IMG/VR virus record: IMGVR_UViG_3300028571_000011
Direction: 5' to 3' (one strand)
Source: a virus
Taxonomy: Duplodnaviria > Heunggongvirae > Uroviricota > Caudoviricetes
Length of the DNA: 64,000 nt
The notes below the pieces were generated by a model that ran no database searches, was not told where the DNA came from, and saw only the letters and a program-made list of their open reading frames with translations. Every line of letters starts with the position of its first letter. Position 1 is the first letter of the stretch. Below are positions 2,978 through 54,489 of this stretch, one piece after another. A program made the position numbers and the translations under genes.

Positions 2978-3402
2978 CGGACGTTCACACGGAGCACTGC
3001 TGTGCTCGGCATGGTTGCAAATACTCGTCTGAGGACTGCACAGTCACAACCGGCAAGGCTGCTCAGTCGTACCCTTGCGAGTACTGCACGTCGTGGAACT
3101 CAGGTTGGCCCACCAAGGCGGGACTGTACTGGTTCCTTGGCAACCTTCGACCGCATGATGATTCGCCACGACTCGAAGTCGTGAAGGCGTTCGAGCTACT
3201 CGGTCAAATGAAATTCGTGCTTGGTACTCTGTTCCTCGACTCGTCGATGCCCTCGACTTGGCTGTGGCTGCCACTCGCGACGCCGGATATGCCCTACAAC
3301 CTCTCCGCTGACGACCTGAAACATATGCGTGGTGCGGGGGCCTTCCTTGACAACGAACACATGAGGGGCCATGACTGGCGCATGAAGGACGAAGACTGGT
3401 GA
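2974..3402 (+). CDS. hypothetical Cys/His-rich protein
   Basis: ORF of 142 aa; ATGA overlap. Confidence 0.5.
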   Translation: MTDVHTEHCCARHGCKYSSEDCTVTTGKAAQSYPCEYCTSWNSGWPTKAGLYWFLGNLRPHDDSPRLEVVKAFELLGQMKFVLGTLFLDSSMPSTWLWLPLATPDMPYNLSADDLKHMRGAGAFLDNEHMRGHDWRMKDEDW

Positions 3403-9053: not shown

Positions 9054-9116
9054 GAGCCGAACGCAACTGAGGGTTACCTTTTTTGGAAACAACCCCTCAA
9101 CCGCAATCCCTTGCTC
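9054..9116 (+). ncRNA. Y RNA-like element Y1 (Ro-binding-stem mimic: 5' GAGCCGAA / 3' CTTGCTC, internal hairpin)
   Basis: terminal helix GAGC/GCUC + bulged C + GA/UU as in Y RNAs; internal TGAGGG/CCCTCA stem; follows tRNA-Arg. Confidence 0.55.
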
Positions 9117-9127
9117 ATTTATATTGT

Positions 9128-9203
9128 GGATCGGTAGCTCAGTTGGTAGAGCACTCGCCTCTTAAGCGATAGGTCGAGGGTTCGAATCCCTCCCGGTCCA
9201 CCA
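9128..9203 (+). tRNA. tRNA-Lys(CTT)
   Basis: GGATCGG/CCGGTCC; anticodon loop CTCTTAA; T-loop TTCGAAT; CCA. Confidence 0.8.
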
Positions 9204-9328
9204 CAAGTGATTCTCATTTCAGGCAATGTCTAGAATGAGAATCACATCAGAGATAGAGAAACGACAACACGAAAGGAGAACGATATGATTTGGTACAAAC
9301 GCACCGACGCCAGAGGCTCTTCTCTCGC

Positions 9329-9401
9329 GGGTCGGTAGCTCAGCTGGTAGAGCATCGAGTTTTTACCTCGTAGGTCGAGGGTTCGAATCCCTCCCGGCCC
9401 C
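9329..9401 (+). tRNA. tRNA-Lys(TTT)
   Basis: GGGTCGG/CCGGCCC; anticodon loop TTTTTAC; no encoded CCA. Confidence 0.75.
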
Positions 9402-9418
9402 CTTCAAAGAGAAGACGA

Positions 9419-9697
9419 ATGACAGTGTACATCGTTGGCAGCGACGAATTCGAAGTGACAGAGTCTGAAGTGGAGGCCCTTGTGAAGGGCTTCGGCAACG
9501 GAGACGTCGCAGCCAACCACTGCTTCCTCCAAGAGAGGAACAGGAAGCTCACAGCACCAATGGTGACCAAAGGAGTGACCAAGGTGATTCTTCAGGCCGT
9601 AGCAGACGGCACAGCAGTCATTCTCGATACACAAGAGAAGTACCGAGATTGCTTGCTTGAGAAACAGAATGCGCTGAATGCGCCGTCATCGTCTTAG
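9419..9697 (+). CDS. hypothetical protein inside the tRNA array
   Basis: ORF of 92 aa; 3' end overlaps tRNA-Thr by about 16 nt. Confidence 0.4.
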   Translation: MTVYIVGSDEFEVTESEVEALVKGFGNGDVAANHCFLQERNRKLTAPMVTKGVTKVILQAVADGTAVILDTQEKYRDCLLEKQNALNAPSSS

Positions 9698-9756
9698 TGG
9701 AAGGACATCCCCTTGGTAAGGGGAAAACCCGAGTTCGATTCTCGGTGACGGCTCCA
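9682..9756 (+). tRNA. tRNA-Thr(GGT)
   Basis: GCCGTCA/TGACGGC; anticodon stem TCCCC/GGGGA; loop TTGGTAA; CCA. Confidence 0.75.
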
Positions 9757-9760
9757 CTCC

Positions 9761-9780
9761 GGTTCGTTCGTTCGTTCGTT
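9761..9780 (+). repeat. (GTTC)n microsatellite spacer
   Basis: GGTTCGTTCGTTCGTTCGTT between two tRNAs. Confidence 0.6.
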
Positions 9781-9783
9781 TGT

Positions 9784-9859
<76 letters not shown>

Positions 9860-9872
9860 TACAGTACCCCAA

Positions 9873-9948
9873 GTCGCTGTAGTTCAGTTGGTAGAATGGG
9901 TTCCTCATAAGGACACGGTCGGAAGTTCGAATCTTCCCAGCGGCACCA
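9873..9948 (+). tRNA. tRNA-Met(CAT) copy 1
   Basis: GTCGCTG/CAGCGGC; anticodon loop CTCATAA; T-loop TTCGAAT; CCA. Confidence 0.75.
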
Positions 9949-10010
9949 GAAAGAGATGGCAGCGGAAGTGAACCTACGTAAAATGTGAAACCGAACCCGC
10001 ACTCTGTCAT

Positions 10011-10703
10011 ATGAAGACAGAAGCACACCAAGAAGCTATTCGCCTGCGAAGAGACGAACGTAAGTCGTTCAATGAAATCACAGACCTACTGGGGGTCTCA
10101 AAAGGAACTTTGAGTGGTTGGTTGAAAGATTACCCTCTGTCTCCTGAAGAGTCAGCGGCTAGAAGGTCATCCGCAGGCCGGTTGCTAAATCAGCGACGCA
10201 GACAGAAGTTTGAAGAAGTGGGCTATCCATTCGATATTCCTCAAGTAACAAAAAATCCTCGTCAAACCATAAAGCGGGCACCGAAACAGGTTGGCGAGAT
10301 CAGTGAGGCGATTGTAGCCGCCCGTCTGATGAAACTTGGTTTCAACCTTCTCAAGCCGATAGGCGACAGCCTGCGATACGACTTGATGATTGATTTCGAA
10401 GACTCTTTCTACCGCGTTCAGGTTAAAACAGCTAGGGTCGAGAATGGTGTCATAGACTTCAGTACGGTATCTTCTCAGGCTCATCGTGGTAAGGGTAAGC
10501 AATCCTACAAAGGACAGATTGAATGGTTCGCAGCCTGTGTGCAAGAAACGGAAGAAGTGTACATGGTACACATTGACAACCCTATCGCTAAGGGGCAAGA
10601 AGTAACCCTCCGTATATCACGTTCCATGACGACACCAACGGCGGAAAATAGAATCGCTATTAAATACATCTTGAATGATGTATGGACTCCAATTAATCAT
10701 TGA
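10011..10703 (+). CDS. putative homing endonuclease: N-terminal HTH + C-terminal PD-(D/E)XK-like nuclease domain
   Basis: ITDLLGVSKGTLSGWL HTH; then GE.SE...YDLMID...RVQVKT motifs; sits in the tRNA array. Confidence 0.5.
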   Translation: MKTEAHQEAIRLRRDERKSFNEITDLLGVSKGTLSGWLKDYPLSPEESAARRSSAGRLLNQRRRQKFEEVGYPFDIPQVTKNPRQTIKRAPKQVGEISEAIVAARLMKLGFNLLKPIGDSLRYDLMIDFEDSFYRVQVKTARVENGVIDFSTVSSQAHRGKGKQSYKGQIEWFAACVQETEEVYMVHIDNPIAKGQEVTLRISRSMTTPTAENRIAIKYILNDVWTPINH

Positions 10704-10776
10704 CTGGTAGCTCAGCCGGTAGAGCAAATTCCTGTTAAGAATGAGGTCGTGGGATCGTAGCCCACCCAGTCAGCCA
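10701..10776 (+). tRNA. tRNA-Asn(GTT)
   Basis: TGACTGG/CCAGTCA; anticodon loop CTGTTAA; CCA. Confidence 0.8.
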
Positions 10777-10784
10777 CAACATAC

Positions 10785-10839
10785 GAGCCGAACGCGACTG
10801 AGGATTATTTTTGCACAAACCCTCAATCACAATCACTCG
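10785..10839 (+). ncRNA. Y RNA-like element Y2 (degenerate 3' strand)
   Basis: GAGCCGAACGCGACTGAGG...CCTCAATCACAATCACTCG; follows tRNA-Asn directly. Confidence 0.4.
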
Positions 10840-10851
10840 TTTGTTTACCTA

Positions 10852-10886
10852 AATGTCCTCAGCGCGTCTCCGTAGGGAGAAGGACA
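10852..10886 (+). repeat. hairpin element A: AATGTCCTCAGCGCGTC...GAAGGACAC (nested palindrome TCTCCGTAGGGAGA)
   Basis: second copy with the same flanks at 18358..18410. Confidence 0.5.
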
Positions 10887-10906
10887 CGTCCAGCAATGGA
10901 CCTCGC

Positions 10907-10982
10907 GGGCATGTACTCAACTGGTTAAGAGGTCACCCTGATAAGGTGATAGATGTAAGTTCGAATCTTGCCATGCCCACCA
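10907..10982 (+). tRNA. tRNA-Ile(GAT)
   Basis: GGGCATG/CATGCCC; anticodon stem TCACC/GGTGA; loop CTGATAA; CCA. Confidence 0.75.
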
Positions 10983-11083
10983 CTCCCTGCCCATTGGTTG
11001 CAGCAGAGTTAGTTCCTCTACGTGGTAGGGGGAAGTCTCTGGAAGGTTCTAAAAGACCGACAATGAATGTTACGGTAGCAAAC

Positions 11084-11164
11084 GTAGCTGAAGACCGGCG
11101 CCGGTCCAAACAGCTGAAGGATGTTATACGTCCCGTCAGGACTCTATACGTCCAGCTACCACCA
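11084..11164 (+). pseudogene. tRNA-like sequence with a non-canonical T-loop (possible tRNA pseudogene)
   Basis: acceptor GTAGCTG/CAGCTAC + CACCA; D-stem GACC/GGTC; no TTCGA T-loop. Confidence 0.3.
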
Positions 11165-11165
11165 T

Positions 11166-11248
11166 GCGGGCTTCGTCTAGCGGCCATGACACCTCTTTTA
11201 CACGGAGGCAAAAAAAGATCGGGGGTTCGAGTCCCTCAGCCCGTACCA
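11166..11248 (+). tRNA. tRNA-Val(TAC), unusual 12-nt variable loop
   Basis: GCGGGCT/AGCCCGT; anticodon stem CCTCT/GGAGG; loop TTTACAC; variable CAAAAAAAGATC; CCA. Confidence 0.5.
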
Positions 11249-11272
11249 TTCAGCTCAGAATGTCAGGTCCAC

Positions 11273-11349
11273 GCGCCAGTAGCTCAATTGGATGAGCAGC
11301 ACGCTTCGAACGTGCCGGTATGCAGGTTCGAGCCCTGTCTGGCGCACCA
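11273..11349 (+). tRNA. tRNA-Arg(TCG)
   Basis: GCGCCAG/CTGGCGC; anticodon stem GCACG/CGTGC; loop CTTCGAA; CCA. Confidence 0.8.
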
Positions 11350-11434
11350 CTCAACTCTTATCCTCGAAAGGAGGAAATGCCATGCAAGCAGAAGACGATG
11401 AAGAAATGACAACCGAATCAGCCGCTGATTGTAT

Positions 11435-11509
11435 GACCATATCCTCCAATGGTTAAGAGCAGCCCCTTTCAAGGGAAGAATCAGAGTTCGATCCTCTGTA
11501 TGGTCACCA
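11435..11509 (+). tRNA. tRNA-Glu(TTC)
   Basis: GACCATA/TATGGTC; loop CTTTCAA; T-arm CAGAG/CTCTG; weak anticodon stem. Confidence 0.55.
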
Positions 11510-11510
11510 C

Positions 11511-11585
11511 GTCCCTATCGTCTAGCGGTCAGGACACTTGCTTCTCAAGCAGGGAACGAGATTTCGATTATCTCTGGGGACACCA
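11511..11585 (+). tRNA. tRNA-Glu(CTC)
   Basis: GTCCCTA/TGGGGAC; anticodon stem CTTGC/GCAGG; loop TTCTCAA; CCA. Confidence 0.75.
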
Positions 11586-11600
11586 GCACAACATTTAAGT

Positions 11601-11726
11601 GAGCCGAAAAGATTGCGTTACCATTCCAAGGCGAAGGTCGTGAGGTTCAACTCCACACCAGCCGCTCCATCATGCGGCTGTAGCTCAGCGTAGAGCGTCG
11701 TAAACCCGCAATCTAGTTACTTGCTC
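11601..11726 (+). ncRNA. YrlA-like Y RNA candidate Y3: Ro-binding-stem flanks (GAGCCGAA...CTTGCTC) enclosing a circularly permuted tRNA-like domain
   Basis: T-loop-like GGTTCAACTCC + acceptor 3' CAGCCGC-TCCA come before acceptor 5' GCGGCTG + D-arm TAGCTCAGCGTAGAGC; about 260 nt upstream of rsr. Confidence 0.55.
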
Positions 11727-11747
11727 ACTTGCCTTTTTAGAGTTTCC

Positions 11748-11814
11748 GAGCCGAATCCCAATGGATTACCTTTCTGCCTATGGCTTAAAATCACCCATTG
11801 GGGATCACTTGCTC
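11748..11814 (+). ncRNA. Y RNA-like element Y4
   Basis: GAGCCGAATCCCAATGG...CCATTGGGGATCACTTGCTC; internal stem shows compensatory changes relative to Y1. Confidence 0.55.
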
Positions 11815-11826
11815 GGACCGTTCGTT

Positions 11827-11902
11827 GCCGACATAGCTCAGTTGGTAGAGCAATTGTTTCGTAAGCAGTAGGTCCTCGGTTCGAATCCGAGTGTCGGCTC
11901 CA
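11827..11902 (+). tRNA. tRNA-Thr(CGT)
   Basis: GCCGACA/TGTCGGC; anticodon loop TTCGTAA; CCA. Confidence 0.8.
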
Positions 11903-11950
11903 CAGTTTAAGCTTGCTACTTGTCTTTGTCCGTGGTAATAGGTCGGTTAA

Positions 11951-11975
11951 CTTGCTCACAGGTGTGAGCCGAAAG
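11951..11975 (+). promoter_or_regulatory. hairpin in the rsr 5' leader made of the two Ro-binding half-motifs in inverted order (CTTGCTCACA-GGTG-TGAGCCGAAAG)
   Basis: lies directly upstream of the rsr ATG; could fold into a Y-stem mimic. Confidence 0.4.
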
Positions 11976-11984
11976 AAGGAATAC

Positions 11985-13730
11985 ATGAACATGTCCAACT
12001 ACTCCAAGCACTTCAACTCCAACAAGACGCCGCAGAACGAGCCCATTCCGGGTCGTGACATGGTGCAGAACGCGGCGGGTGGCTTCAACTTCGCCGTTGA
12101 CGACTGGGCACGGCTCCGTCGTTTCCTGATCCTCGGTACCGAGGGTGGTTCCTTCCATCAGAAGGAACAGAAGCTGACGAAGGAGAACGCGCAGGCGGTC
12201 CTTCGCTGCATCAAGACCGATGGTCCACGTGCGGTCAAGGAGATCGTCACCATCTCGGTGGAGGGTCGTGCTCCGAAGAATGACCCTGCGATCTTCGCTC
12301 TGGCCATGGCGCTCAAGCTCGGTGACGAGGCAACTCGCCGCTTGGCTTCCGACGCTGTCCCTGACGTGTGCCGCATCGGCACCCATGTGTTCCAGCTTGC
12401 AGAGGCTGTGAAGGCGTTCGGTGGCTGGGGTCGTACGACCGCTCGTGCATTCGCCAACTGGTACAACAAGCAGACGCCGGACAAGCTGGCGCTCAACCTG
12501 CTGAAGTACCAGCAGCGTGACGGCTGGTCGCACAAGAACTTGCTGTCGAAGTCCCACGCAGGTGGTTCGGCTCCGACGAAGTCTCACGCTGCGATGTTCA
12601 GCTACGTCATGCGCAACGGTGACCTGTCTGCTCGCAAGGTGGAGCGCAAGGTCAAGGGTAAGGTTCTGTCGGTCGGTGACTACAGCGGTCACAGCCGTGC
12701 TGACCTCCCTCGCTTGATTGAGGGCTTCGAGAAGGTCCGTGAGGGCGGTCTCACGGAGAAGATGGTTGCGAAGCTCATTCGTGACTACGACCTTCCTCGT
12801 GAGGTGATCCCGACCCAGTTCTTGAACAGCAAGGACGTCTGGGATGCTCTGCTTCACGCTGGCAAGCTCGGCATGCCCATCGGTGCCCTTGTCCGCAACC
12901 TCAGCAAGATGACGACGATTGGTCTCATCGCTCCCTTGAGCGACGCCACGTCCTTCGTTGCCTCGAAGCTGGATAGCGAGGAAGCCATCAAGCATGGTCG
13001 CATGCATCCCCTGTCCATCCTGCTTGCGTCTCGTACGTATGCACAAGGACACGGCGAGAAGGGCTCGCTCCAGTGGAAGCCTGTTCCTCAGGTTCTCGAA
13101 GCTCTCGACAAGGCTTTCTACCATGGATTCAAGTCTGTGGAGCCCACTGGCCTGAAGCATCTGACCGCTGTGGACGTCTCGGGCTCGATGCACTCCAGCC
13201 GGGTAGCCGGTGGACTGGTAACGAGCGCTGAAGCAGCAGCAGCAGTGGCTCTGGTGACGGCGAACGTGGAAAAGAACCATCACATGGTTTGCTTCACGAA
13301 CGGCTCACAGGGTGCTGGCGAGTACAAGTTCGGCAATGGTGCTTCTCGCTGGAGCCAAGTGAACAGCGGCATCAGCCCCTTCGACATCAACCCGCGCATG
13401 CGGTTGTCGGAAGTGGCAGCGAAGACCCGGAACATGCCGTTCGGCGGCACGGACTGCGCTCTGCCGATGTTGTACGCCCTCAAGAACAAGATTGAGGTCG
13501 ACGTCTTCATGGTGCTGACCGACAACGAGACTTGGGCAAACCCAGAAGTCCACCCGTCACAGGCCCTCAAGCTGTACCGGCAGGAGATGCAGCGTCCCGC
13601 GAAGCTGGTTGTTTTGGCCTTCGAAGCTTCCAACAATACGATCGCTGACCCGAACGACAGCGGCATGATTGACATCGTCGGTCTGGATACGTCCACCCCC
13701 GATTTGATCTCTGCCTTCGTTCGTGCTTGA
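11985..13730 (+). CDS. rsr: Ro60/Rsr ortholog (TROVE domain + C-terminal vWA with DVSGSM MIDAS), Y RNA-binding protein
   Basis: PGRDMVQNAAGGFNF..RFLILGTEGGS.H at the N-terminus; vWA MIDAS at the C-terminus; ATG at 11985 within the listed ORF 11913..13730. Confidence 0.85.
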   Translation: MNMSNYSKHFNSNKTPQNEPIPGRDMVQNAAGGFNFAVDDWARLRRFLILGTEGGSFHQKEQKLTKENAQAVLRCIKTDGPRAVKEIVTISVEGRAPKNDPAIFALAMALKLGDEATRRLASDAVPDVCRIGTHVFQLAEAVKAFGGWGRTTARAFANWYNKQTPDKLALNLLKYQQRDGWSHKNLLSKSHAGGSAPTKSHAAMFSYVMRNGDLSARKVERKVKGKVLSVGDYSGHSRADLPRLIEGFEKVREGGLTEKMVAKLIRDYDLPREVIPTQFLNSKDVWDALLHAGKLGMPIGALVRNLSKMTTIGLIAPLSDATSFVASKLDSEEAIKHGRMHPLSILLASRTYAQGHGEKGSLQWKPVPQVLEALDKAFYHGFKSVEPTGLKHLTAVDVSGSMHSSRVAGGLVTSAEAAAAVALVTANVEKNHHMVCFTNGSQGAGEYKFGNGASRWSQVNSGISPFDINPRMRLSEVAAKTRNMPFGGTDCALPMLYALKNKIEVDVFMVLTDNETWANPEVHPSQALKLYRQEMQRPAKLVVLAFEASNNTIADPNDSGMIDIVGLDTSTPDLISAFVRA

Positions 13731-13735
13731 CTTCG

Positions 13736-13775
13736 CTGACAGGATCAGCTAAAACTGGTCCTGTCAGGTTTGCGT
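13736..13775 (+). terminator. hairpin after rsr (CTGACAGGA...TCCTGTCAG + GTTTGCG)
   Basis: 9-bp stem 6 nt after the stop; weak U tract. Confidence 0.4.
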
Positions 13776-13798
13776 GAAAACCGAATATGAAACACTTC

Positions 13799-13867
13799 GT
13801 GAGACGGTGCCGCCGTGCTTGTCACCAAGATTCGTCTTGGCAGACTGCTTGAATAACGGCACCGTCT
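13799..13867 (+). ncRNA. structured element: 12-bp perfect stem (GAGACGGTGCCG/CGGCACCGTCTC) with a nested hairpin
   Basis: perfect inverted repeat with an internal CCAAGA-TTCG-TCTTGG hairpin. Confidence 0.35.
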
Positions 13868-13879
13868 CCAGATTTTGGA

Positions 13880-14010
13880 GAGCCGAAGAAGAAACGTTAA
13901 CAAAACAGCATGTCCTTGGTTCGAACCCAAGCATTGTGAACGCAAGTTCCTTTGTAGCTCAGCTGGAAGAGCAGCCGTCCACAAAACACGTTTCCTCACA
14001 ACTTGTTCTC
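13880..14010 (+). ncRNA. Y RNA-like element Y5 with internal T-arm-like (CTTGG TTCGAAC CCAAG) and D-arm-like (TAGCTCAGCTGGAAGAGC) modules in permuted order
   Basis: flanks GAGCCGAAG ... CTTGTTCTC; T-arm comes before D-arm as in Y3. Confidence 0.45.
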
Positions 14011-14039
14011 CTTAGCTTTTGACGAACCGAAGATTTGTA

Positions 14040-14092
14040 GGTTATCTTTTTGGAAGGAGTGGTCGCTGGTTCGAGTCCAGCCCTCCCCACCA
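14040..14092 (+). ncRNA. orphan tRNA 3' half (T-arm GCTGG TTCGAGT CCAGC + acceptor CCTCCCC-A-CCA)
   Basis: no complementary 5' acceptor upstream; the GGGGAGG partner lies downstream of Y6. Confidence 0.45.
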
Positions 14093-14095
14093 TAC

Positions 14096-14159
14096 GAGCC
14101 GAACGCAACCGCTGGGTTACCCTTGAAATGTACCCCCCAGCATCCGCAATCCCTTGCTC
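14096..14159 (+). ncRNA. Y RNA-like element Y6 (between the permuted tRNA halves)
   Basis: GAGCCGAACGCAACCGCTGGG...CCCAGCATCCGCAATCCCTTGCTC; compensatory GCTGGG/CCCAGC stem. Confidence 0.55.
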
Positions 14160-14167
14160 GTTCCCTT

Positions 14168-14200
14168 GGGGAGGTAGCTCAGTTGGTAGAGCACTAAACG
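14168..14200 (+). ncRNA. orphan tRNA 5' half (acceptor GGGGAGG + D-arm TAGCTCAGTTGGTAGAGC)
   Basis: perfect 7/7 complement to the 3' half at 14082..14088; no downstream T-arm. Confidence 0.45.
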
Positions 14201-14235
14201 TCTACGGTCATACCTTGTTCGTCATTCTTTTCTGA

Positions 14236-14336
14236 ACGCCCTTAGCTCAGTGGTAGAGCGGCACCTCGACAAGGTGAAGGTCACTGGTTCAATCCCAGTA
14301 GGGCGGTCACTGGTTCAATCCCAGTAGGGCGTACCA
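14236..14336 (+). tRNA. tRNA-Val(GAC) carrying a 26-nt tandem duplication of the T-arm/acceptor 3' segment
   Basis: ACGCCCT...anticodon loop TCGACAA...; GTCACTGGTTCAATCCCAGTAGGGCG occurs twice; second copy ends ...AGGGCGT-A-CCA. Confidence 0.6.
14280..14331 (+). repeat. tandem duplication (2 x 26 nt) within tRNA-Val(GAC)
   Basis: exact direct repeat at 14280..14305 and 14306..14331. Confidence 0.8.
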
Positions 14337-14343
14337 GTTCGTT

Positions 14344-14415
14344 GCGCTCGTAGCTCAGCGGTAGAGCATTCGGCTCATAACCGACCGTGCGTGGGTTCAA
14401 ATCCCTCCGGGCGCC
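14344..14415 (+). tRNA. tRNA-Met(CAT) copy 2
   Basis: GCGCTCG/CGGGCGC; anticodon loop CTCATAA; T-loop TTCAAAT. Confidence 0.7.
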
Positions 14416-14437
14416 CATTTCAAGTTCTTCAGTTTGC

Positions 14438-14499
14438 GAGCCGAATACGACCGAGGGTTACTTACCATTCAAGACACCCCTCAACAGTGAAACTTGCTC
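14438..14499 (+). ncRNA. Y RNA-like element Y7, followed by a weak hairpin + T-run
   Basis: GAGCCGAATACGACCGAGGG...CCCCTCAACAGTGAAACTTGCTC; follows the tRNA directly. Confidence 0.55.
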
Positions 14500-14537
14500 G
14501 CATCTTTTCGTGCGGTTTTAACCTAGTGTAAATTCGT

Positions 14538-14611
14538 GCGGGTGTGGTATAGTGGCCGTGCCTTAGCCTTCCAAGCTAATGACACCAGTTCGAGTCTGGT
14601 CATCCGCTCCA
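14538..14611 (+). tRNA. tRNA-Gly(TCC)
   Basis: GCGGGTG/CATCCGC; anticodon stem TTAGC/GCTAA; loop CTTCCAA; CCA. Confidence 0.75.
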
Positions 14612-14846
14612 AAGATAGAGTTACAATGACAAAGTCAAACACAGACCGATACAAATGGTATCGGTCAAAGAAGAGGGTTCTGATAACCAGCTGGTTATTG
14701 GCAAATCCTTGTGTACCCACACGGGTATAGAACAAAGTACCAGCAAGGTTGCCGGTGCGGCCTCTGTAGAGAAGCCCAAAAACTTTACATGAGGAAAAGA
14801 AGAGAAGCAAAGGCTTCTGGGAATATCTAGTCAGTGTTCGTTGTAT

Positions 14847-15262
14847 GGGCTCAACCCGGTTTCGATTCGGGATGAAAAGCTAAGAAGTGCGTGTCGTGGT
14901 TGGCCGAAGGGCCACGTAAAAAATCGGTCAAAAACAATCAGCCAACGATAACATCGAAGGCGCTTCTTTCCGCATGGCTGCCTGAAAAGGTAGTCCTCGG
15001 TAAGAGGTGAGGGAACGGTTCTAGCGAACTTAGCTCCCCGTCGGGTCCAACAGAGAGCCTTCTGTAAAGGAACCCCGGCGTAAATCACTGAAGGCTAGGC
15101 GTTGATGGTGGTCGCGGCCATCAACGAGTAGAATCAAACAGCTGACCACCGAGTCTCGGACTCAACCTCATTGCCACGGTGGAGGTAAAAACTGCGGCTA
15201 CACACGTAGAGTTCTTCGTAATAGTCTTGAAGACGGGGGTTCGATTCCCCCTGAGTCCACCA
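14847..15262 (+). ncRNA. ssrA: tmRNA (SsrA); tag reading frame encodes (A)ANDNIEGASFRMAA
   Basis: 5' GGGCTCAACCCGGTTTCGATTCGGGAT tRNA-like end; 3' GACGGGGGTTCGATTCCCCCTGAGTCCACCA; tag ORF 14941..14985. Confidence 0.75.
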
Positions 15263-15466
15263 GAGCAGTTAGGCACCGCTGCAATCCACACGAAAGTGTG
15301 ATAGAGAGACCTACGATGCCCTGACAGGTGCAATGCTTGTCTGGTGGAGGTAACGATTCAGGTCGTTGCCCTGACCGTGATGGTAGTAGCGGGTTGCTTC
15401 AGGGTTATTGTCCAACCTTGGATTGACGCGGCGGGTAAAACTGCCCTACCAACCTTTCATTGCTCA

Positions 15467-15494
15467 TTGACTTCAGCGTAAGTTCTGGTATAAC
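15467..15494 (+). promoter_or_regulatory. sigma70-like promoter TTGACT-N16-TATAAC driving a near-leaderless ORF
   Basis: -10 ends 6 nt before the ATG at 15501. Confidence 0.5.
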
Positions 15495-15500
15495 TAGCAA

Positions 15501-15866
15501 ATGATCACTGCCACCATTCCTGCAGAAGCCATCCCGACCGACCGTCGGGTGTACCGTGCTCGCGGCCATGGTGCAGCAGGCATCGGCGATTACAACCGGC
15601 ACTACGCCAAGTACGTCTCAGAGCCGCTCTGGCTCAACAACTTCGACGAAGCCTTCGAGAAGCTTCGTGAGTCTCTGGCCAACTTCAGCATTGACCTGAC
15701 CAAAGAGTCCTTCAATGCAGAGATCAAGCGTGTCTTGAACTCGAAGAACCTCGATGCCTTCTGCAAGGTCGGTCGCGCTGGTTCTGGTTACAAGCTGGAG
15801 CGTCTTGGCAAGACTCGACTCTACACTTTTCTTTGTCCTCTTTTTGAGTACGATGAAGAACTGTGA
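15501..15866 (+). CDS. hypothetical protein
   Basis: ORF of 121 aa downstream of the promoter. Confidence 0.5.
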   Translation: MITATIPAEAIPTDRRVYRARGHGAAGIGDYNRHYAKYVSEPLWLNNFDEAFEKLRESLANFSIDLTKESFNAEIKRVLNSKNLDAFCKVGRAGSGYKLERLGKTRLYTFLCPLFEYDEEL

Positions 15867-15931
15867 ACATCTCATCGTCAGGCTCTGGTAGTCTGGCGCG
15901 ACCGGGCAGGCCCAGCGGTTCTGGGTTGTTT

Positions 15932-16006
15932 GCGGGTGTAGCTCAGTGGTAGAGCATCTCGTTGCCAACGAGAATGTCATGGGTTCGAATCCCATCATCC
16001 GCTCCA
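15932..16006 (+). tRNA. tRNA-Gly(GCC)
   Basis: GCGGGTG/CATCCGC; anticodon stem TCTCG/CGAGA; loop TTGCCAA; CCA. Confidence 0.85.
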
Positions 16007-16022
16007 TTTCAGATAGAAGACA

Positions 16023-16409
16023 ATGCCTCTTAAAGACCCAGTTGCGAGACGAGAGTACCAGCGAAACTACAGCAGAAATCGGCTGCATACCGACCCCATT
16101 GCAAAAGCAATGCACGCGCAACGAGTTAAGAAAAACAATAAGAAAGCAAGAGAAGCCATCCGGGCTTTGGTTGACGTCTTCAGAAAAGACGGTTGCCTGC
16201 TTTGCGGAGAAAGCGACGCGTGTTGTTTAGATGCCCACCACTTAGACCCGTCATCGAAAGATTTCAGTATAGGTGAGGCTGCGAGAAGGCTCCTTACCCT
16301 CAAAAAGGTAAGGGAGGAAATTACAAAGTGCGTCTGTGTCTGTAGAAATTGCCATGCTAAGATACATGCCGGTTCTCTAGTTATAGAAAGAAACCTTTGC
16401 GGGGTATAG
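16023..16409 (+). CDS. HNH homing endonuclease
   Basis: CLLCGE...CCLDAHHLDP...CRNCHAKIH HNH motifs. Confidence 0.75.
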   Translation: MPLKDPVARREYQRNYSRNRLHTDPIAKAMHAQRVKKNNKKAREAIRALVDVFRKDGCLLCGESDACCLDAHHLDPSSKDFSIGEAARRLLTLKKVREEITKCVCVCRNCHAKIHAGSLVIERNLCGV

Positions 16410-16471
16410 AAATGGTATCTTATGGGCCTCATAAGCCCAAGTTCTCCGTTCAAGTCGGAGTCCCGCATCCA
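16398..16471 (+). tRNA. tRNA-Met(CAT) copy 3 (initiator, elongator or tRNA-Ile2 cannot be told apart)
   Basis: TGCGGGG/TCCCGCA; anticodon stem TGGGC/GCCCA; loop CTCATAA; T-arm CTCCG TTCAAGT CGGAG; CCA. Confidence 0.65.
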
Positions 16472-16477
16472 TTCAAC

Positions 16478-16536
16478 GAGCCGAATACGACCGAGGGTTA
16501 CCTGCATAAACTACCCCTCAACTGTGAACCTTGCTC
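16478..16536 (+). ncRNA. Y RNA-like element Y8
   Basis: GAGCCGAATACGACCGAGGGTTACC...CCCCTCAACTGTGAACCTTGCTC; follows the tRNA. Confidence 0.55.
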
Positions 16537-17244: not shown

Positions 17245-17636
17245 GCCTCCGTATCGGCTCTGACTTCTAATCTGAGTACCGTAACTGGACTTATGCAGGT
17301 TCGAGTCCTGCCGGGGGCACCATCTACGACCACGACACTCATTGGGTGTAGAACGGCCAAATGGAACGAGTTCGACCCTCGTATAGTCCACCAGTGGGCT
17401 ATGGTAGCGGACCGAGCCGGGTTCGACTCCCGGTACATCCACCAATGTCAGTGCGCTCGTAGTTCAGCTGGACGATTAAACGCGATTGGGTCACTACGTC
17501 AACTCTTTCTGCACTCGCAGCTGCTCAGGTACACACCAGAAGACTACAGTTATCACGCGCCCGTATTCCCTCGGTTTCCTAAACCGTTGAAAGGATAGTT
17601 GGATACACACAAGTTCGAGTCTTGTCGGGCGCGCCA
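17245..17636 (+). pseudogene. cluster of about 4 degenerate tRNA-like units, each ending in a T-arm + acceptor + CCA (ends at 17322, 17393, 17444, 17636)
   Basis: canonical T-arms (GCAGG TTCGAGT CCTGC; ACGAG TTCGACC CTCGT; CCGGG TTCGACT CCCGG; ACAAG TTCGAGT CTTGT), but no canonical D/anticodon arms could be folded. Confidence 0.4.
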
Positions 17637-17771: not shown

Positions 17772-18356
17772 ATGACCGCTCAAATTCTCGTCCTCAACAA
17801 GCAATGGGCTCCCGTCGGGATCGCTGACTTGGAGCGTGCAATGGGTCTGCTCTGCACTGGAGCAGCCAAGGCGTTGGACAAGGAACATCAGATGTACGAC
17901 TTCGCGTCGTGGTCTGAACTCCGTGCTGAGTATGGGGACGCCACCGTCTCGACGCCCAACAGGGTGATCAAGATTCCTACCATCTTGGTGCTTCAGGTCT
18001 ACGACCGTCTGCCGCACATGCGAGTTCGTTTCTCGCGCAATGCTGTCTACCTGCGTGACAACTTCACGTGTCAGTACTGCGCCAAGAAGTTCCCTCGTCA
18101 GTCACTGAACCTTGACCATGTCGAGCCTCGTTCTCGTGGCGGTCGCACCAGCTGGACCAACATCGTTTGTGCCTGCTACCCGTGCAACACCAAGAAGGGA
18201 GACAAGACGCCTGCTGAAGCCGGTATGCCTCTGCTCAAGAAGCCCGCCAAGCCTCGTGTCAGTGGTCTGAATCTCGGTCGTGCAACGCCAGCTGAGTGGC
18301 TGCCGTTCATCGACCCAGTGTCAGCTGCATACTGGAATTCGGAACTCGAAGAGTGA
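17772..18356 (+). CDS. HNH endonuclease (McrA-like)
   Basis: CQYC...LNLDHVEPRSRGG..N..CACYPCNTKK. Confidence 0.7.
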   Translation: MTAQILVLNKQWAPVGIADLERAMGLLCTGAAKALDKEHQMYDFASWSELRAEYGDATVSTPNRVIKIPTILVLQVYDRLPHMRVRFSRNAVYLRDNFTCQYCAKKFPRQSLNLDHVEPRSRGGRTSWTNIVCACYPCNTKKGDKTPAEAGMPLLKKPAKPRVSGLNLGRATPAEWLPFIDPVSAAYWNSELEE

Positions 18357-27727: not shown

Positions 27728-28486
27728 ATGAAGCCGAACATGCGCTCCGACAACCGATATACAAAAGAGATTCTTGAAGAATCAGTGAAGAGAAATGAGA
27801 CATGGGCAGGTGTCATTCGTGACCTGAAAGGAACCGGCAGCCACGGCGGTGGTCTACATGCGCATCTGAGGGGCAGAGCGGAGGCTATGGGTATTGACTA
27901 TAGTCACTTCAAGGGGCGTAGCTGGAGTAGGGGGACACCAAGTCCAAAGCGGGTCGGAGCAGAGGATATTCTTAAAAGGCAGCATGGCGAGCGCTTGAAG
28001 CCTCCCGCTACACACTACCTGAGAAAATCCTTACTGGAGATTGGTGTACCACATCGATGTTCACTTGAAGGCTGTCCAGTGGGAACAACGTGGAACAGTA
28101 AAGAGTTGGTGTTGCAGGTCGATCACATCAACGGTGATAAGTTTGATTGTCGGGCAGAAAATCTGCGGTTCATTTGCCCAAACTGCCACTCTCAAACCTC
28201 GAACTGGGGTATAAAGAATAGCAAAGGCTACAACATCGAACCGACTATCTGCCAAGGGTGCAGCCGAGAAACGAAAGAAAGAGGGTCGACACGATGTGCG
28301 TCGTGTGCTCAGAAGGAGGCCAGCAAGACAAGAGCAGCAAATCAAGAACGAATTAGCTGGCCTTCAATCGAACAGTTACAGAGTATGATGACTACCATGT
28401 CGATGGTGGCGATTTCAAAGCAACTCGGCTGTTCAGACAACGCTGTCAGGAAGTTTATGAAGAAGAAAGGCGCATGGGTAAAGTAA
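27728..28486 (+). CDS. HNH endonuclease
   Basis: LQVDHINGDKFDCRAENLRFICPNCHSQ. Confidence 0.65.
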   Translation: MKPNMRSDNRYTKEILEESVKRNETWAGVIRDLKGTGSHGGGLHAHLRGRAEAMGIDYSHFKGRSWSRGTPSPKRVGAEDILKRQHGERLKPPATHYLRKSLLEIGVPHRCSLEGCPVGTTWNSKELVLQVDHINGDKFDCRAENLRFICPNCHSQTSNWGIKNSKGYNIEPTICQGCSRETKERGSTRCASCAQKEASKTRAANQERISWPSIEQLQSMMTTMSMVAISKQLGCSDNAVRKFMKKKGAWVK

Positions 28487-53028: not shown

Positions 53029-54489
53029 ATGACTTTTCCAATCTCTCCCACTCTTCGTGTCATGCTGGAAGCTATCGTCGCTTCTGGTGGTCGTCCTGCC
53101 ATCATCGGCGGCTCCGTTCGTGACTGGGTCTTGGGTCTGGAGCCCAAGGACATCGACGTCGAGGTCTACGGCTTGGACGTGGCTGACTTGGAACTCGCCC
53201 TGTCGAAGTTCAAGGTTGACGCTGTCGGTCGTGCCTTCGGTGTCTTCAAGGTGACCATCGAAGGTGAGACGTTTGACGTTTCGCTTCCTCGTCGCGAGTC
53301 CAAGGAAGGCCATGGCCACCGTGGCTTCATGGTGTCCTCTGACCCGACGATGACTCCCGAAGAGGCTGCTCTTCGACGTGACTTCACGGTCAACACTCTT
53401 GGCTGGGACTTCATCGACGGCAAGCTGATGGACTTCCACGGCGGCATGGCTGACATCAAGGCCAAGGTTCTGCGTCACACCAGCCCAGCTTTCGCTGAGG
53501 ATCCTCTTCGTGTGCTGCGTGGCTGTCAGTTCGCTGGTCGCTTCGGCTTCACCATGGACGGAGACACCATCGACATGTGCCTCAGCCTCACTGAGGAGCT
53601 TCGTACGCTCCCTGTAGAGCGGCTGTGGACTGAGTGGGTCAAGCTCCTGACGAAGAGCCCCAAGCCCTCTGTGGGCCTGACAGCGCTGGTTGAGACCGGT
53701 GCCATCGAGGTCTTCCCCGAAGTGAAGGCGCTGCTGTACGTTCCTCAGGAGCCTGAGTGGCATCCAGAAGGTCAGGACCACCCGTTGGGCAGTCTCTGGG
53801 TGCACAACTGCATGGTCACGGACATGGCTGTTCGTGTGCTGGACGATGATGGTGTCACTGACGCTGAGGAGCGTTTGATCATCATCCTCGGTGCCTTCTG
53901 TCACGACTTCGGCAAGCCTGCCACGACTGTGTTCGAGCGGGATCGCTGGCGGTCTTTGGCCCATGAGGAAGCCGGTGAAGCTCCGACTCGAAGCTTCCTG
54001 ACCCGGATTGGTGCGCCGCACCACATCATCGAGGCAGTTGTGCCTCTGGTGATGCAGCACCTCAAGCCTTTCCACTTGGCTCGTGACAAGGCTAGCAGTG
54101 GTTCTGTCCGTCGCTTGGCGCTGAAGGTTCCTCTGGAGCGTCTGTGTCGTGTGGGTCGTGCTGACTTCTTGGGTCGGACCACTCCTGACGCTCTGGCCAT
54201 CACGGACAGCCGTGAGGTTGAGGAGACGAAGTGGCTTCTGGAACGGGCAATCGAACTTGCGGTTCGTGACTCTGCTCCTCAGCCTCTCGTCATGGGTCGT
54301 CATCTGATCGATGCTGGCATGAAGCCGAGCCGAGAGTTCGGCGAGGTCCTCAAACGAGCGTTCGAGTACCAGCTGGACGGCTTCATCTTCGACGAGGAGT
54401 CGGCCCTTCGCTTCGTGAAGGAGAAGGTTGTGGTGACGGATGATGGCCATGGGCAGGTTGTGGATGGCTGGACCGGTACTTGCGGCTGA
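53029..54489 (+). CDS. cca: CCA-adding tRNA nucleotidyltransferase with a C-terminal HD domain
   Basis: IIGGSVRDWVLGLEPKDIDVEV polymerase-beta head; RRDFTVNTL; HD motif FCHDFGKP. Confidence 0.85.
   Translation: MTFPISPTLRVMLEAIVASGGRPAIIGGSVRDWVLGLEPKDIDVEVYGLDVADLELALSKFKVDAVGRAFGVFKVTIEGETFDVSLPRRESKEGHGHRGFMVSSDPTMTPEEAALRRDFTVNTLGWDFIDGKLMDFHGGMADIKAKVLRHTSPAFAEDPLRVLRGCQFAGRFGFTMDGDTIDMCLSLTEELRTLPVERLWTEWVKLLTKSPKPSVGLTALVETGAIEVFPEVKALLYVPQEPEWHPEGQDHPLGSLWVHNCMVTDMAVRVLDDDGVTDAEERLIIILGAFCHDFGKPATTVFERDRWRSLAHEEAGEAPTRSFLTRIGAPHHIIEAVVPLVMQHLKPFHLARDKASSGSVRRLALKVPLERLCRVGRADFLGRTTPDALAITDSREVEETKWLLERAIELAVRDSAPQPLVMGRHLIDAGMKPSREFGEVLKRAFEYQLDGFIFDEESALRFVKEKVVVTDDGHGQVVDGWTGTCG

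Follow-up and report, generated by a model that had tools for sequence, protein, structure and literature searches.

Ro60 is tethered by Y RNAs to effectors such as PNPase. Cleavage by RNase P at tRNA-like structures generates the ends of other noncoding RNAs, for example MALAT1/mascRNA, and two-piece tmRNAs (alphaproteobacteria, cyanobacteria) carry the T arm and the acceptor 3' strand with CCA ahead of an intervening segment and the acceptor 5' strand, giving two paired pieces. The YrlA-type Y RNAs have been known as circularly permuted tRNA mimics since the work of Chen et al. (2014; PMC4201824), and a YUAY motif and a V stem-loop are among their features (PMC4201824). In M. smegmatis, RNase P cleaves YrlA, whose acceptor stem is 7 bp long, both in vivo and in vitro; the RNA gains CCA, and its two halves remain bound to Rsr after cleavage (PMC4201824; 10.1101/312249). 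Akin to this, RNase P or RNase Z opens the acceptor arm, closed at first, of permuted tRNAs in Cyanidioschyzon merolae (Soma et al., 2007, as discussed in 10.1101/312249).

Here we analyse a 64,000-nucleotide stretch of DNA from a caudoviricete phage (IMG/VR record IMGVR_UViG_3300028571_000011; 'the window'), in which two RNAs of this kind lie on the plus strand downstream of a Ro60 gene: element 1 (13880..14010), an ordinary YrlA-type Y RNA, and element 2 (14019..14225), which is very likely a YrlA with a small Y RNA, Y6, nested in its acceptor arm. As tRNA-mimicking Y RNAs the two are of the known YrlA type; a CCA-ended acceptor arm that encloses a complete extra Y RNA has probably not been described before. 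No nested form was found in the YrlA literature searched, of which the supplements of Chen et al. (2014) and the reviews PMC10870794 and PMC6047535 formed no part.

Like YrlA (RF02553), the two elements adjoin a Ro60 gene, end in a terminal GNCGAA stem and follow the order V arm, T arm, acceptor stem, D arm; they differ from it in scoring below the Rfam cut-off and in being set in a tRNA island of about nine Y-type elements. The 7-bp acceptor stem of element 2 is shared with M. smegmatis YrlA, but its CCA is fully encoded, whereas CA is added after cleavage in M. smegmatis (PMC4201824), and its acceptor loop is a whole second Y RNA with its own Ro60 motif. The small Y elements resemble YrlB-type Y RNAs and phage Yrl1/Yrl2 in their simple CGAA stem with an internal hairpin and in their proximity to Ro60 (PMC4201824; PMC12135203). 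Y6 and the free elements are 60-70 nt long; unlike YrlB, Y6 does not stand alone but lies within another Y RNA, and the small Y elements have a GGGTTAYC motif in common with the V region of YrlA. The gene order of element 2 is that of two-piece tmRNA, and two base-paired pieces are proposed for it as well, but it lacks a tag reading frame and pseudoknots, and its intervening segment is a conserved, functional-looking RNA. With permuted tRNAs of C. merolae it shares a 3' half upstream of the 5' half and a closed acceptor arm, but has neither an anticodon arm nor a bulge-helix-bulge motif, and its ends form a Ro60-type stem. As in MALAT1/mascRNA and in tRNA punctuation, the tRNA-shaped fold may be a cleavage signal between noncoding RNAs; in element 2, however, the fold is split by the RNA that would be released, and both products would be Y RNAs.

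Results

Two YrlA-class RNAs follow a phage Ro60 gene

The open reading frame at 11985..13730 (plus strand), whose identity as a Ro60 gene had escaped the original prediction, encodes a TROVE and vWA protein, the presumed protein partner of the Y RNAs. It is ~40% identical over 98% of its length to a 'Ro-like RNA binding protein' in 355 phage records, and its homologues contain the PF05731 (TROVE) and PF25045 (vWA_Ro60) domains. Element 1 begins 150 nt and element 2 291 nt downstream of its end at 13730, on the same strand. Both are YrlA-class Y RNAs and, as predicted from their sequences, partner RNAs of the phage Ro60: the GNCGAA motif, the succession of T arm, acceptor stem and D arm, the V hairpin and the YUAY motif were all found, and covariation supports all helices of both elements. 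Their scores with the Rfam YrlA model (35.0 bits for element 2 and 20.8 bits for element 1) fall below the gathering score of RF02553 (69 bits), a point against the assignment, but the YrlAs beside the Ro-like genes of Bixzunavirus, Cashline and Sixama reach only 37-47 bits, so that this threshold is not discriminating for phages.

Element 1 matches the YrlA model over its full length, the alignment covering 13891-13997. Its Y stem (5' strand GAGCCGAAG, 13880-13888, including a GNCGAA-type motif, GCCGAAG, at 13882-13888; 3' strand CTTGTTCTC, 14002-14010) encloses a T arm (CTTGG-TTCGAAC-CCAAG, 13915-13931), a closed acceptor-like hairpin (13932-13954) with a GCAA-capped tip (13938-13949) and a D arm (TAGCTCAGCTGGAAGAGC, 13955-13972). 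Orthologues are present in 8 related loci, with compensatory change in 17/26 pairs (RNAalifold). A loop-closed acceptor without a free CCA end is a trait of YrlA, the M. smegmatis RNA, which becomes opened, being the known exception; element 1, which has no CCA, conforms to it, and this is the point at which element 2 varies.

The island around these elements (9.0-16.5 kb) holds 9/9 of the exact plus-strand GAGCCGAA sites of the window, a one-piece, normal tmRNA (14847-15262) and free small Y RNAs arranged as tRNA(CCA)-linker-Y-linker-tRNA sandwiches. CCA is encoded in ~25/27 tRNA genes of the window, and the phage also encodes a homologue of the CCA-adding enzyme (53029-54489). A paralogous YrlA upstream of Ro60 (11601..11726, plus strand; Rfam YrlA 20.3 bits) has a 7-bp acceptor with a loop of merely T-CCA-TCAT (CAGCCGC-TCCATCAT-GCGGCTG), and is thus an 'empty' CCA-bearing form. 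A scan for promoters and terminators gave no enrichment over shuffled sequences; a TTGACG...TATCTT match (14019-14048) overlaps a conserved, compensated RNA stem and was read as RNA, not as a promoter.

An outer Y stem encloses the apparent tRNA halves and a nested Y RNA

All motifs named in the original prediction for the two elements and Y6 are present where it had placed them. It had offered element 2 either as a split or permuted tRNA or as a composite Y RNA with a Y-stem hairpin capping the acceptor stem, had given the '3' half' an arbitrary start at 14040, and had overlooked that both halves and Y6 are enclosed by an outer stem of the Ro60 type. The 5' strand of this stem (TGACGAACCGAAG, 14020..14032) pairs with 14214-14225 (3' strand CTTGTTCGTCA, 14214-14224). 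Its ACCGAAG motif is GNCGAA-like, the first G being replaced by A with compensation on the 3' strand; most copies have ACCGAAG instead of GNCGAAG, which counts against the YrlA assignment, while one orthologue (L005a) retains GCCGAAG, and among type-A orthologues the 5' strand is invariant save in L005, where an A-U pair is changed to G-C with compensation (pair 9:217). Within the outer stem lie a second stem (GTAGGT, 14037-14042, with GTCTAC, 14200-14205), a YUAY motif (TTAT, 14042-14045) and a variable-arm-like hairpin (14046-14057), the second stem and the hairpin corresponding to RNAalifold helices 2 and 3, each with compensatory changes.

The tRNA-like domain that follows consists of a T arm (GCTGG-TTCGAGT-CCAGC, 14065..14081; 3/5 pairs covary and the stem is 100% paired in nine copies), the acceptor 3' strand CCTCCCC (14082-14088), a discriminator A (14089) and an encoded CCA (14090-14092). 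After Y6 (14094..14161) comes a pyrimidine-rich linker (TCCCTT, 14162..14167), the predicted 5' leader of an RNase P substrate with its putative cut at 14167/14168, and then the acceptor 5' strand GGGGAGG (14168-14174), which forms 7/7 Watson-Crick pairs with the 3' strand. U8 and A9 separate it from the D stem, which starts at 14177, and the D arm (GCTC-AGTTGGTA-GAGC, 14177-14192, in a D arm region of 14175-14192) shows a double compensatory change in its stem in one homologue (L008; GTCT/GGAC). The remainder (14193..14225) supplies the 3' strands of an anticodon-stem-like helix, the second stem and the outer Y stem (MFE, RNAalifold). What formally is the loop of the acceptor is thus 79 nt long and contains A-CCA, the whole of Y6 and the linker. 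Among possible sources of the tRNA-like domain tRNA-Lys is the nearest, on generic D-arm and T-arm identity only.

MFE prediction, RNAalifold and the Rfam YrlA model all recovered this fold, the last aligning 14058-14195 (35.0 bits, E 4e-6) with an 80-nt insertion in the acceptor loop and with T arm, acceptor and D arm in register; the composite Y RNA of the original prediction was essentially right. Y6 itself, a helix ACGAGC...GCTCGT around a core GAGCCGAA...CTTGCTC (14096-14159), has its own GNCGAA motif (GCCGAACG) and a GGGTTAC, the same motif pair that the outer stem and the free Y RNAs display. In an alignment with the free-standing copies at 9054, 10785, 11748, 14438 and 16478 and the nested copies of relatives, it behaves as a normal member of a small-Y family of ~65 nt, 7/13 pairs being compensatory.

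Because the outer Ro60-type stem encloses the 'split tRNA', the region is not a broken tRNA. ARAGORN called no tRNA at 13880-14235, an anticodon stem-loop is absent from element 2, the flanks forming a Y stem in its place, and the Rfam tRNA model gave only a chimeric match of 17.6 bits. A permuted tmRNA was likewise rejected: the match to RF04321 (19.0 bits against a gathering score of 47) covers only the T arm, CCACCA and GGGG, and no tag reading frame was found in element 2.

Nine homologues preserve the nested architecture by compensatory change

We identified nine independent homologous copies in related metagenomic phage contigs, all of which keep the architecture (9/9); the Ro60 proteins of these contigs are, where measured, 57-71% identical to that of the window. 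The acceptor is 7/7 Watson-Crick paired in 9/9 copies although its sequences differ, and all seven pairs show compensatory change (helix 100% paired), whereas non-cognate combinations of acceptor strands form a mean of 3.4/7 pairs and none reaches 7. The 7-bp complementarity, whose conservation in relatives the original prediction had named as decisive, therefore holds. In a MAFFT alignment of the nine copies, which comprise two paralogue types, 94.6% of the cells are paired and 19/29 pairs change in a compensatory manner; none of 500 shuffles paired as well, and slid controls were 39-51% paired. Together with the clustering of the GAGCCGAA sites in the island, these comparisons show that the features did not arise by chance. 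For the seven orthologues of element 2 RNAalifold gave 43 pairs, 19 of them compensatory, with 96.3% paired (0/500 shuffles; slid controls 38-51%). In three homologues the T stem contains a bulged U.

With a covariance model built from the composite, composites score >120 bits and the next-best matches, at 56-95 bits, are tRNA-Y-tRNA sandwiches. Two candidates were set aside: in L056, which had looked nested, a small Y lies between two neighbouring tRNA-shaped RNAs, and at L011 8594-8730 (95 bits) a small Y comes after a real tRNA-Val, the D-arm match being spurious. Scans for the outer-stem pattern in viral, metagenome and genome collections returned almost exclusively chance matches in coding DNA, together with one new true copy (L030) and a duplicate (L040, the contig of L011). 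Megablast against 50,697 phage records found matches of tRNA size only and no close relatives, a search of IMG/VR for related loci with the Ro60 protein alone found none, and an alignment-based Ro60 scan gave 80 loci at 42-50% identity, none of them with a nested composite. More distant Ro60 phages have 'tRNA-topology' relatives in which the acceptor is open and the Y stem is loop-closed.

These data bear on the view that the region is a true permuted or split tRNA gene, its product joined for instance via a circular intermediate, or else debris, be it of a tRNA gene broken by insertion of Y6 or of the T and D arms of neighbouring tRNAs. A 3' half placed ahead of a 5' half, with CCA encoded, does match permuted tRNA genes, tRNA dimers can mimic YrlA, as Chen et al. 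warned (PMC4201824), and the window does contain tRNA-Y-tRNA sandwiches. However, the sequences outside the T and D arms form a long Ro60-type stem, the T arm has no D arm upstream of it and the D arm is followed by no T arm, the acceptors of the sandwiches are non-complementary, and debris would not have maintained a 7/7 pairing with compensation in nine lineages. We consider such an origin extremely improbable; of the split or permuted tRNA originally proposed, only the topology stands.

The outer RNA also occurs without a nested Y: L012 3438-3574 is of the same outer type but has a closed TTAC loop and no CCA (Rfam YrlA 48.5 bits), and the tetraloop-capped YrlAs likewise have no CCA. This copy speaks for a function of the outer RNA in its own right, and thus against the idea that the tRNA-like module and the outer stem are mere punctuation for the excision of Y6, with the flanks being discarded. 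Elsewhere in the island small Y RNAs are indeed flanked by real tRNAs at similar spacing, and RNase P cuts at tRNA-like structures make the ends of other noncoding RNAs, MALAT1/mascRNA among them; but RNase P recognition requires neither the outer and second stems nor the V hairpin and YUAY motif, all of which are conserved with compensation, and we judge this explanation improbable.

Encoded CCA and a proposed opening of the acceptor

The features of an RNase P substrate (a 7-bp acceptor on a 5-bp T stem, T loop, NCCA, single-stranded leader) are present in the window and in 9/9 homologues. NCCA is invariant in 9/9 nested copies while the adjoining linkers (4-9 nt) are unconserved, with U at position -1 in 6/9, and orthologues with a closed acceptor have no CCA; for both reasons we favour an opening of the acceptor. 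Processing is further favoured by the third paralogue type, that of 11601-11726, in which NCCA lies inside a loop of 5-9 nt and whose orthologues (L008 3414-3545, L004 4538-4673) keep NCCA and complementary acceptors that differ in sequence, as well as by the prevalence of encoded CCA among the tRNA genes, the sandwiches and the CCA-adding enzyme homologue. Against it counts the nested Y helix, which begins just 1-2 nt past CCA and might hinder RNase P, and CCA could also reflect mere tRNA ancestry or serve for binding as a motif inside an internal loop.

The latter possibility belongs to a reading in which the ~205-nt RNA stays intact and its L-shaped domain bridges two Ro60-binding stems, the outer stem occupying the 'anticodon' end while Y6 stacks on the acceptor end, so that one RNA would carry two Ro60 rings, or Ro60 and another factor, and CCA would lie in a conserved internal loop and not form a 3' end. 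The covariation places the whole nested fold under selection, the outer and Y6 stems both bear the motif pair of free Y RNAs, and the short distance from CCA to Y6 is awkward for release; moreover, a phage Ro60 reportedly binds two Y-like RNAs with distinct stoichiometries and forms higher-order RNPs, a dimeric assembly being seen by cryo-EM (PMC12135203). Yet an RNase P substrate needs an intact fold too, and the covariation hence does not separate the two models. A strict NCCA at tRNA positions 73-76, an exact 7-bp acceptor and an unconserved U-rich linker fit a pre-tRNA-like substrate, whereas in a structural internal loop both strands should be conserved, and the CCA-bearing paralogue with its loop of only 5-9 nt cannot be a second binding site. 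On this evidence an uncleaved bridge appears rather unlikely.

Discussion

Taken together, our results are best explained by a composite YrlA that is opened at its acceptor to give a two-piece tRNA mimic, an explanation we hold to be likely; that RNase P is the enzyme opening the acceptor arm is a view to which we lean, and the grounds for inferring cleavage are sequence features together with a single precedent from another organism. In outline, element 2 would be transcribed as part of the polycistronic tRNA/Y RNA island and adopt the full structure, a fold supported by covariation. RNase P would then recognize the acceptor/T-arm minihelix with NCCA and cut at 14167/14168, and a two-piece tRNA mimic would result, comprising a 5' piece of ~72-74 nt, with its end at CCA or close by, and a 3' piece of ~57 nt, joined via the acceptor helix and the outer Y stem. 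Y6 would either be freed by an extra cut 1-2 nt past CCA or be left tethered to the 5' piece. The net yield of one gene would be two modules that bind Ro60 and a tRNA-like domain whose acceptor end is opened and bears CCA. The fuller version, a 'self-punctuation' in which RNase P opens the YrlA around the nested Y to leave a two-piece mimic with free CCA and a separate small Y, we put forward only tentatively. The CCA-adding enzyme of the phage could repair a free CCA end; such an end might also be aminoacylated, or could serve as a decoy or sensor for host nucleases that target tRNA.

A conserved encoded CCA together with a second Y RNA bears on what the tRNA-like domain of bacterial and phage Y RNAs is for: it suggests that, in these large phages, tRNA-processing enzymes are meant to open the tRNA mimic, and offers a concrete handle that can be tested through RNase P cleavage, the role of the CCA end and a 2:1 stoichiometry of Ro60. 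Judging from the arrangement of this locus, phage tRNA islands may host entire arrays of Y RNAs reliant on tRNA processing, which matters for the annotation of such islands, where Y elements are now invisible or taken for tRNA fragments. If the proposed opening is true, then it and the 'tRNA-topology' relatives would together mark the open acceptor end as a functional state for which Ro60-associated tRNA mimics are selected, and which they reach via three gene architectures.

Two tRNA-like halves and a nested Y RNA form one composite YrlA

All motifs named in the original prediction, which read 13880-14200 as a permuted tRNA-like module followed by a tRNA whose halves flank Y6, are present at or within one base of their assigned positions. 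In element 2 these are the T arm (14065-14081), CCTCCCC-A-CCA (14082-14092), the Y6 hairpin (14096-14159), GGGGAGG (14168-14174) and the D arm (14175-14192). While the motifs and order of this arrangement stand, an outer stem had been overlooked: TGACGAACCGAAG (14020-14032) pairs with CTTGTTCGTCA (14214-14224), so that both halves and Y6 lie inside a single fold of ~205 nt. The outer stem, T arm, acceptor helix, nested hairpin and D arm all form in the minimum free energy structure of 14018-14230.

The order T before D is the hallmark of the YrlA family. The Rfam YrlA model matched 14058-14195 (35 bits, E 4e-6); T arm, acceptor stem and D arm lined up with their counterparts in the model, and an 80-nt insertion fell at the position of its 2-nt loop. 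As read from the sequence, the tRNA-like core has U8, A14, G15, G18-G19, C48 and the T-loop TTCGA; Y6, the other nested hairpins and the free small Y RNAs align as one family. YrlA as defined by Chen et al. has a 5' GNCGAAN0-1G, T and D stem-loops around an acceptor-like stem and an upstream V stem-loop starting YUAY (PMC4201824), and all of these features were found in the window's elements. Elements 1 and 2 both score under the Rfam YrlA gathering score (69 bits), as do the YrlAs adjoining Ro-like genes in Bixzunavirus and the Gordonia phages Cashline and Sixama (37-47 bits).

Element 1 (13880-14010), running from GAGCCGAAG (13880-13888) to CTTGTTCTC (14002-14010), is an ordinary YrlA member. 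Its T arm (13915-13931) does precede its D arm (13955-13972), as predicted and as is typical of the family, and the Rfam YrlA model aligned full length at 13891-13997 (20.8 bits). The acceptor-like arm is a closed hairpin with a GCAA tetraloop tip and without CCA, and 17 of the 26 pairs of the fold show compensatory changes among eight orthologues.

Covariation shows selection on the composite as a single RNA

Composite copies were collected from contigs encoding Ro60 homologues and, by pattern search, from one further contig. The nested architecture was present in nine independent copies: that of the window, with which the near-identical contigs L001-L003 were grouped, and those of the metagenomic loci L006, L007, L008, L011, L005 (two copies), L012 and L030. 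Their outer stems are of two types, TTTGACGA[A/G]CCGA...CTTG[T/C]TCGTCA and TGTGAGCCGAACGA...CTTGCTCACA. The acceptor strands are different in each copy, yet pair 7/7 by Watson-Crick rules every time (3' strand/5' strand: window, CCTCCCC/GGGGAGG; L006, ACTCACC/GGTGAGT; L007, CCACTCC/GGAGTGG; L008, CCTCACC/GGTGAGG; L011, CCAGAAC/GTTCTGG; L005a, CTGCCCA/TGGGCAG; L030, CCACGCC/GGCGTGG; L005b, CACCGGG/CCCGGTG; L012b, CCCCGGG/CCCGGGG). Non-cognate strands form on average 3.4 of 7 pairs, and none of 72 such pairings reaches 7. The complementarity noted between the halves has thus clearly not been lost in relatives: across all nine, pairing in the acceptor helix is 100% and each of the 7 pairs shows compensatory change.

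For the seven type-A copies, RNAalifold independently predicted the outer stem, a second stem, the V hairpin, T arm, acceptor stem, nested hairpin and D arm. In this alignment 96.3% of cells are paired and 19 of 43 pairs show compensatory change, a level reached by none of 500 shuffles; slid controls gave 38-51%. These results show that selection acts on the composite fold as a single RNA, in which two Ro60-type stems are combined with a tRNA-like core. A genuine split or permuted tRNA, one of the two readings first proposed, is excluded, as are a two-piece tmRNA and degenerate debris, because element 2 has no anticodon arm, scores 19 bits (versus 47) with the Rfam tmRNA_permuted model, receives no ARAGORN tRNA call and shows strong covariation. 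In three of the nine composites (L005 ~10006-10023, L008 ~3229-3246 and the minus strand of L030) the T stem carries an extra bulged U (GCAG-U-G TTCGARU C-CUGC) and is not the canonical 5-bp stem.

Among the loci found, only members of a clade with a Ro60 at least 57% identical to the window's have the nested form. It was absent from 80 IMG/VR Ro60 loci at 42-50% identity; the three deposited phages that were checked also lack it, the acceptors of their YrlAs being closed and differently built. The papers searched that mention YrlA describe neither a nested Y RNA nor an encoded CCA.

An encoded CCA accompanies the nested Y RNA

The acceptor 3' strand is followed by NCCA in all nine nested copies (ACCA in six, TCCA in one, GCCA in two), showing that NCCA is under purifying selection. 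The linkers flanking the nested Y are short (1-2 nt long after the CCA, 4-9 nt long before the 5' strand), pyrimidine-rich and unconserved. An orthologue of the same outer type without a nested Y (L012 3438-3574) is closed by a TTAC loop and lacks CCA, as do tetraloop-capped YrlAs. A third paralogue type carries NCCA in a 5-9 nt loop closed by compensated acceptors (window 11601-11726, L008 3414-3545, L004 4538-4673), the acceptors of the L008 and L004 orthologues being complementary but different in sequence. The window's member, upstream of Ro60, has a 7-bp acceptor closed by T-CCA-TCAT (CAGCCGC-TCCATCAT-GCGGCTG) and looks like an 'empty' cleavable counterpart of the nested composite. With a covariance model of the composite core, the nine composites scored 122-146 bits; the next-best matches (56-95 bits) were tRNA-Y-tRNA sandwiches with non-complementary acceptors.

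An experimental precedent is the YrlA of M. smegmatis, an RNA with a 7-bp acceptor stem: RNase P cleaves it in vivo, as does M1 RNA in vitro, and it gains CCA and survives as two halves, both bound to Rsr (PMC4201824). The mechanism judged most likely for element 2 is that an RNase P cut between 14167 and 14168 would open the acceptor arm, and the 5' piece (about 14019-14092) and 3' piece (14168-14225) would be kept paired via the acceptor and outer stems. Y6 might then be freed by a second cut just past the CCA, or stay attached to the 3' end of the 5' piece; this second step is the weakest of the mechanism because CCA and the Y6 helix are only 1-2 nt apart. The main rival, in which the RNA stays uncut and uses its two Ro60-type stems as a two-Ro60 scaffold, would leave the conserved NCCA inside the molecule, and we regard it as rather unlikely.

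The Ro60 gene lies in a tRNA and Y RNA island

The ORF at 11985-13730 encodes a Ro60/TROVE-vWA protein that shares ~40% identity across 98% of its length with the 'Ro-like RNA binding protein' of 355 phage records and 57-99% identity with metagenomic homologues. The surrounding island holds 21 of the 27 tRNA genes of the window and a tmRNA. All nine exact plus-strand GAGCCGAA sites of the 64-kb window fall at 9,054-16,478, marking three YrlA-like RNAs (11601, 13880 and, for the outer element, 14021), six small Y RNAs of ~65 nt (9054, 10785, 11748, 14096, which is Y6, 14438 and 16478) and a hairpin in the Ro60 leader. The single Ro60 gene is thus accompanied by ~9 Y-type elements: Y6, three of YrlA type and five free small Y RNAs among the tRNA genes (9054-9116, 10785-10846, 11748-11814, 14438-14499 and 16478-16536). 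The free ones typically start 6-21 nt past a tRNA's CCA, one lying 11 nt ahead of the next tRNA, and their usual setting is a tRNA(CCA)-linker-Y-linker-tRNA sandwich.

CCA is encoded by almost all tRNA genes of the window, which also encodes a CCA-adding enzyme homologue (53029-54489, plus strand) 57% identical to a PolyA_pol + HD enzyme near Ro60 in L005. Relatives have an RNA ligase gene near the Y RNA array; no homologue was detected in the window. No promoter or terminator enrichment was seen in the island, which is compatible with maturation from long precursors by tRNA-processing enzymes. Among the tRNA and Y RNA genes lie probable homing-endonuclease genes (PD-(D/E)XK, HNH, HNH_3) at 10011-10703, 17772-18356 and 27728-28486, and relatives have HNH genes at similar places. 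No close relative of the phage was present among 50,697 deposited phage genomes and its relatives lie on contigs of 180-380 kb, so it is probably large and uncultivated.

In tRNA-Val(GAC) (14236-14336), a 26-nt unit of the T arm and 3' acceptor strand (GTCACTGGTTCAATCCCAGTAGGGCG) occurs twice in perfect tandem at 14280-14331, and only the second copy yields a perfect 7-bp acceptor followed by ACCA. Contigs L001-L003, which are 99% identical, lack this duplication; it is either specific to the strain or an artefact of assembly. Odd tRNA-like pieces are clustered at 17245-17480: an Rfam tRNA match without an ARAGORN call (17245-17319, 31.9 bits), weak tmRNA and mascRNA-like matches (17344-17444), two orphan segments consisting of a T arm plus CCACCA, and GCGCTCG-TAGTTCAGCTGGAC at ~17455, which resembles a 5' half.

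The Ro60 mRNA leader carries an 'inside-out' Y stem, CTTGCTCAC-aggt-GTGAGCCGAAAG (11951-11976), followed by a ribosome-binding site and the Ro60 start at 11985. Its motif pair is like that of the Y RNA stems, with the 3'-strand motif first. Conservation of this stem with compensatory changes in seven relatives, including L004, L006, L007, L008, L011 and L030, suggests a candidate autoregulatory Ro60 site on its own mRNA.

Distant Ro60 phages carry tRNA-shaped RNAs with an open acceptor

Many of the Ro60 phage loci that are more distant encode RNAs of 118-135 nt that are tRNA-shaped and have normal tRNA topology: L105 (3075-3203), L088 (3153-3278), L054 (3671-3808), L056 (3084-3208 and 3276-3398), L075 (5499-5635), L077 (5483-5611 and 5615-5744) and, further, L081, L084, L103, L108, L114 (two), L122/L123 and L055. 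Their parts run from the acceptor 5' strand through the D arm, a closed hairpin, GGGTTATC, the V region and the T arm to the acceptor 3' strand, sometimes with CCA; the hairpin, in place of the anticodon arm, bears the motif pair of the Y stems (CTTGCCC, a loop of 3-6 nt and GGGCCGAAG, with GGGTTATC next). These RNAs amount to circularly permuted YrlAs whose acceptor is open. RNAalifold on 16 examples gave compensatory changes in 15 of 19 pairs, and four scored 43-49 bits with the Rfam tRNA model; ARAGORN did not call the one tested, from L105. No description of this Ro60-associated class was found in the literature searched. That such RNAs exist favours the view that, for tRNA mimics associated with Ro60, having an open acceptor end is a functional state.
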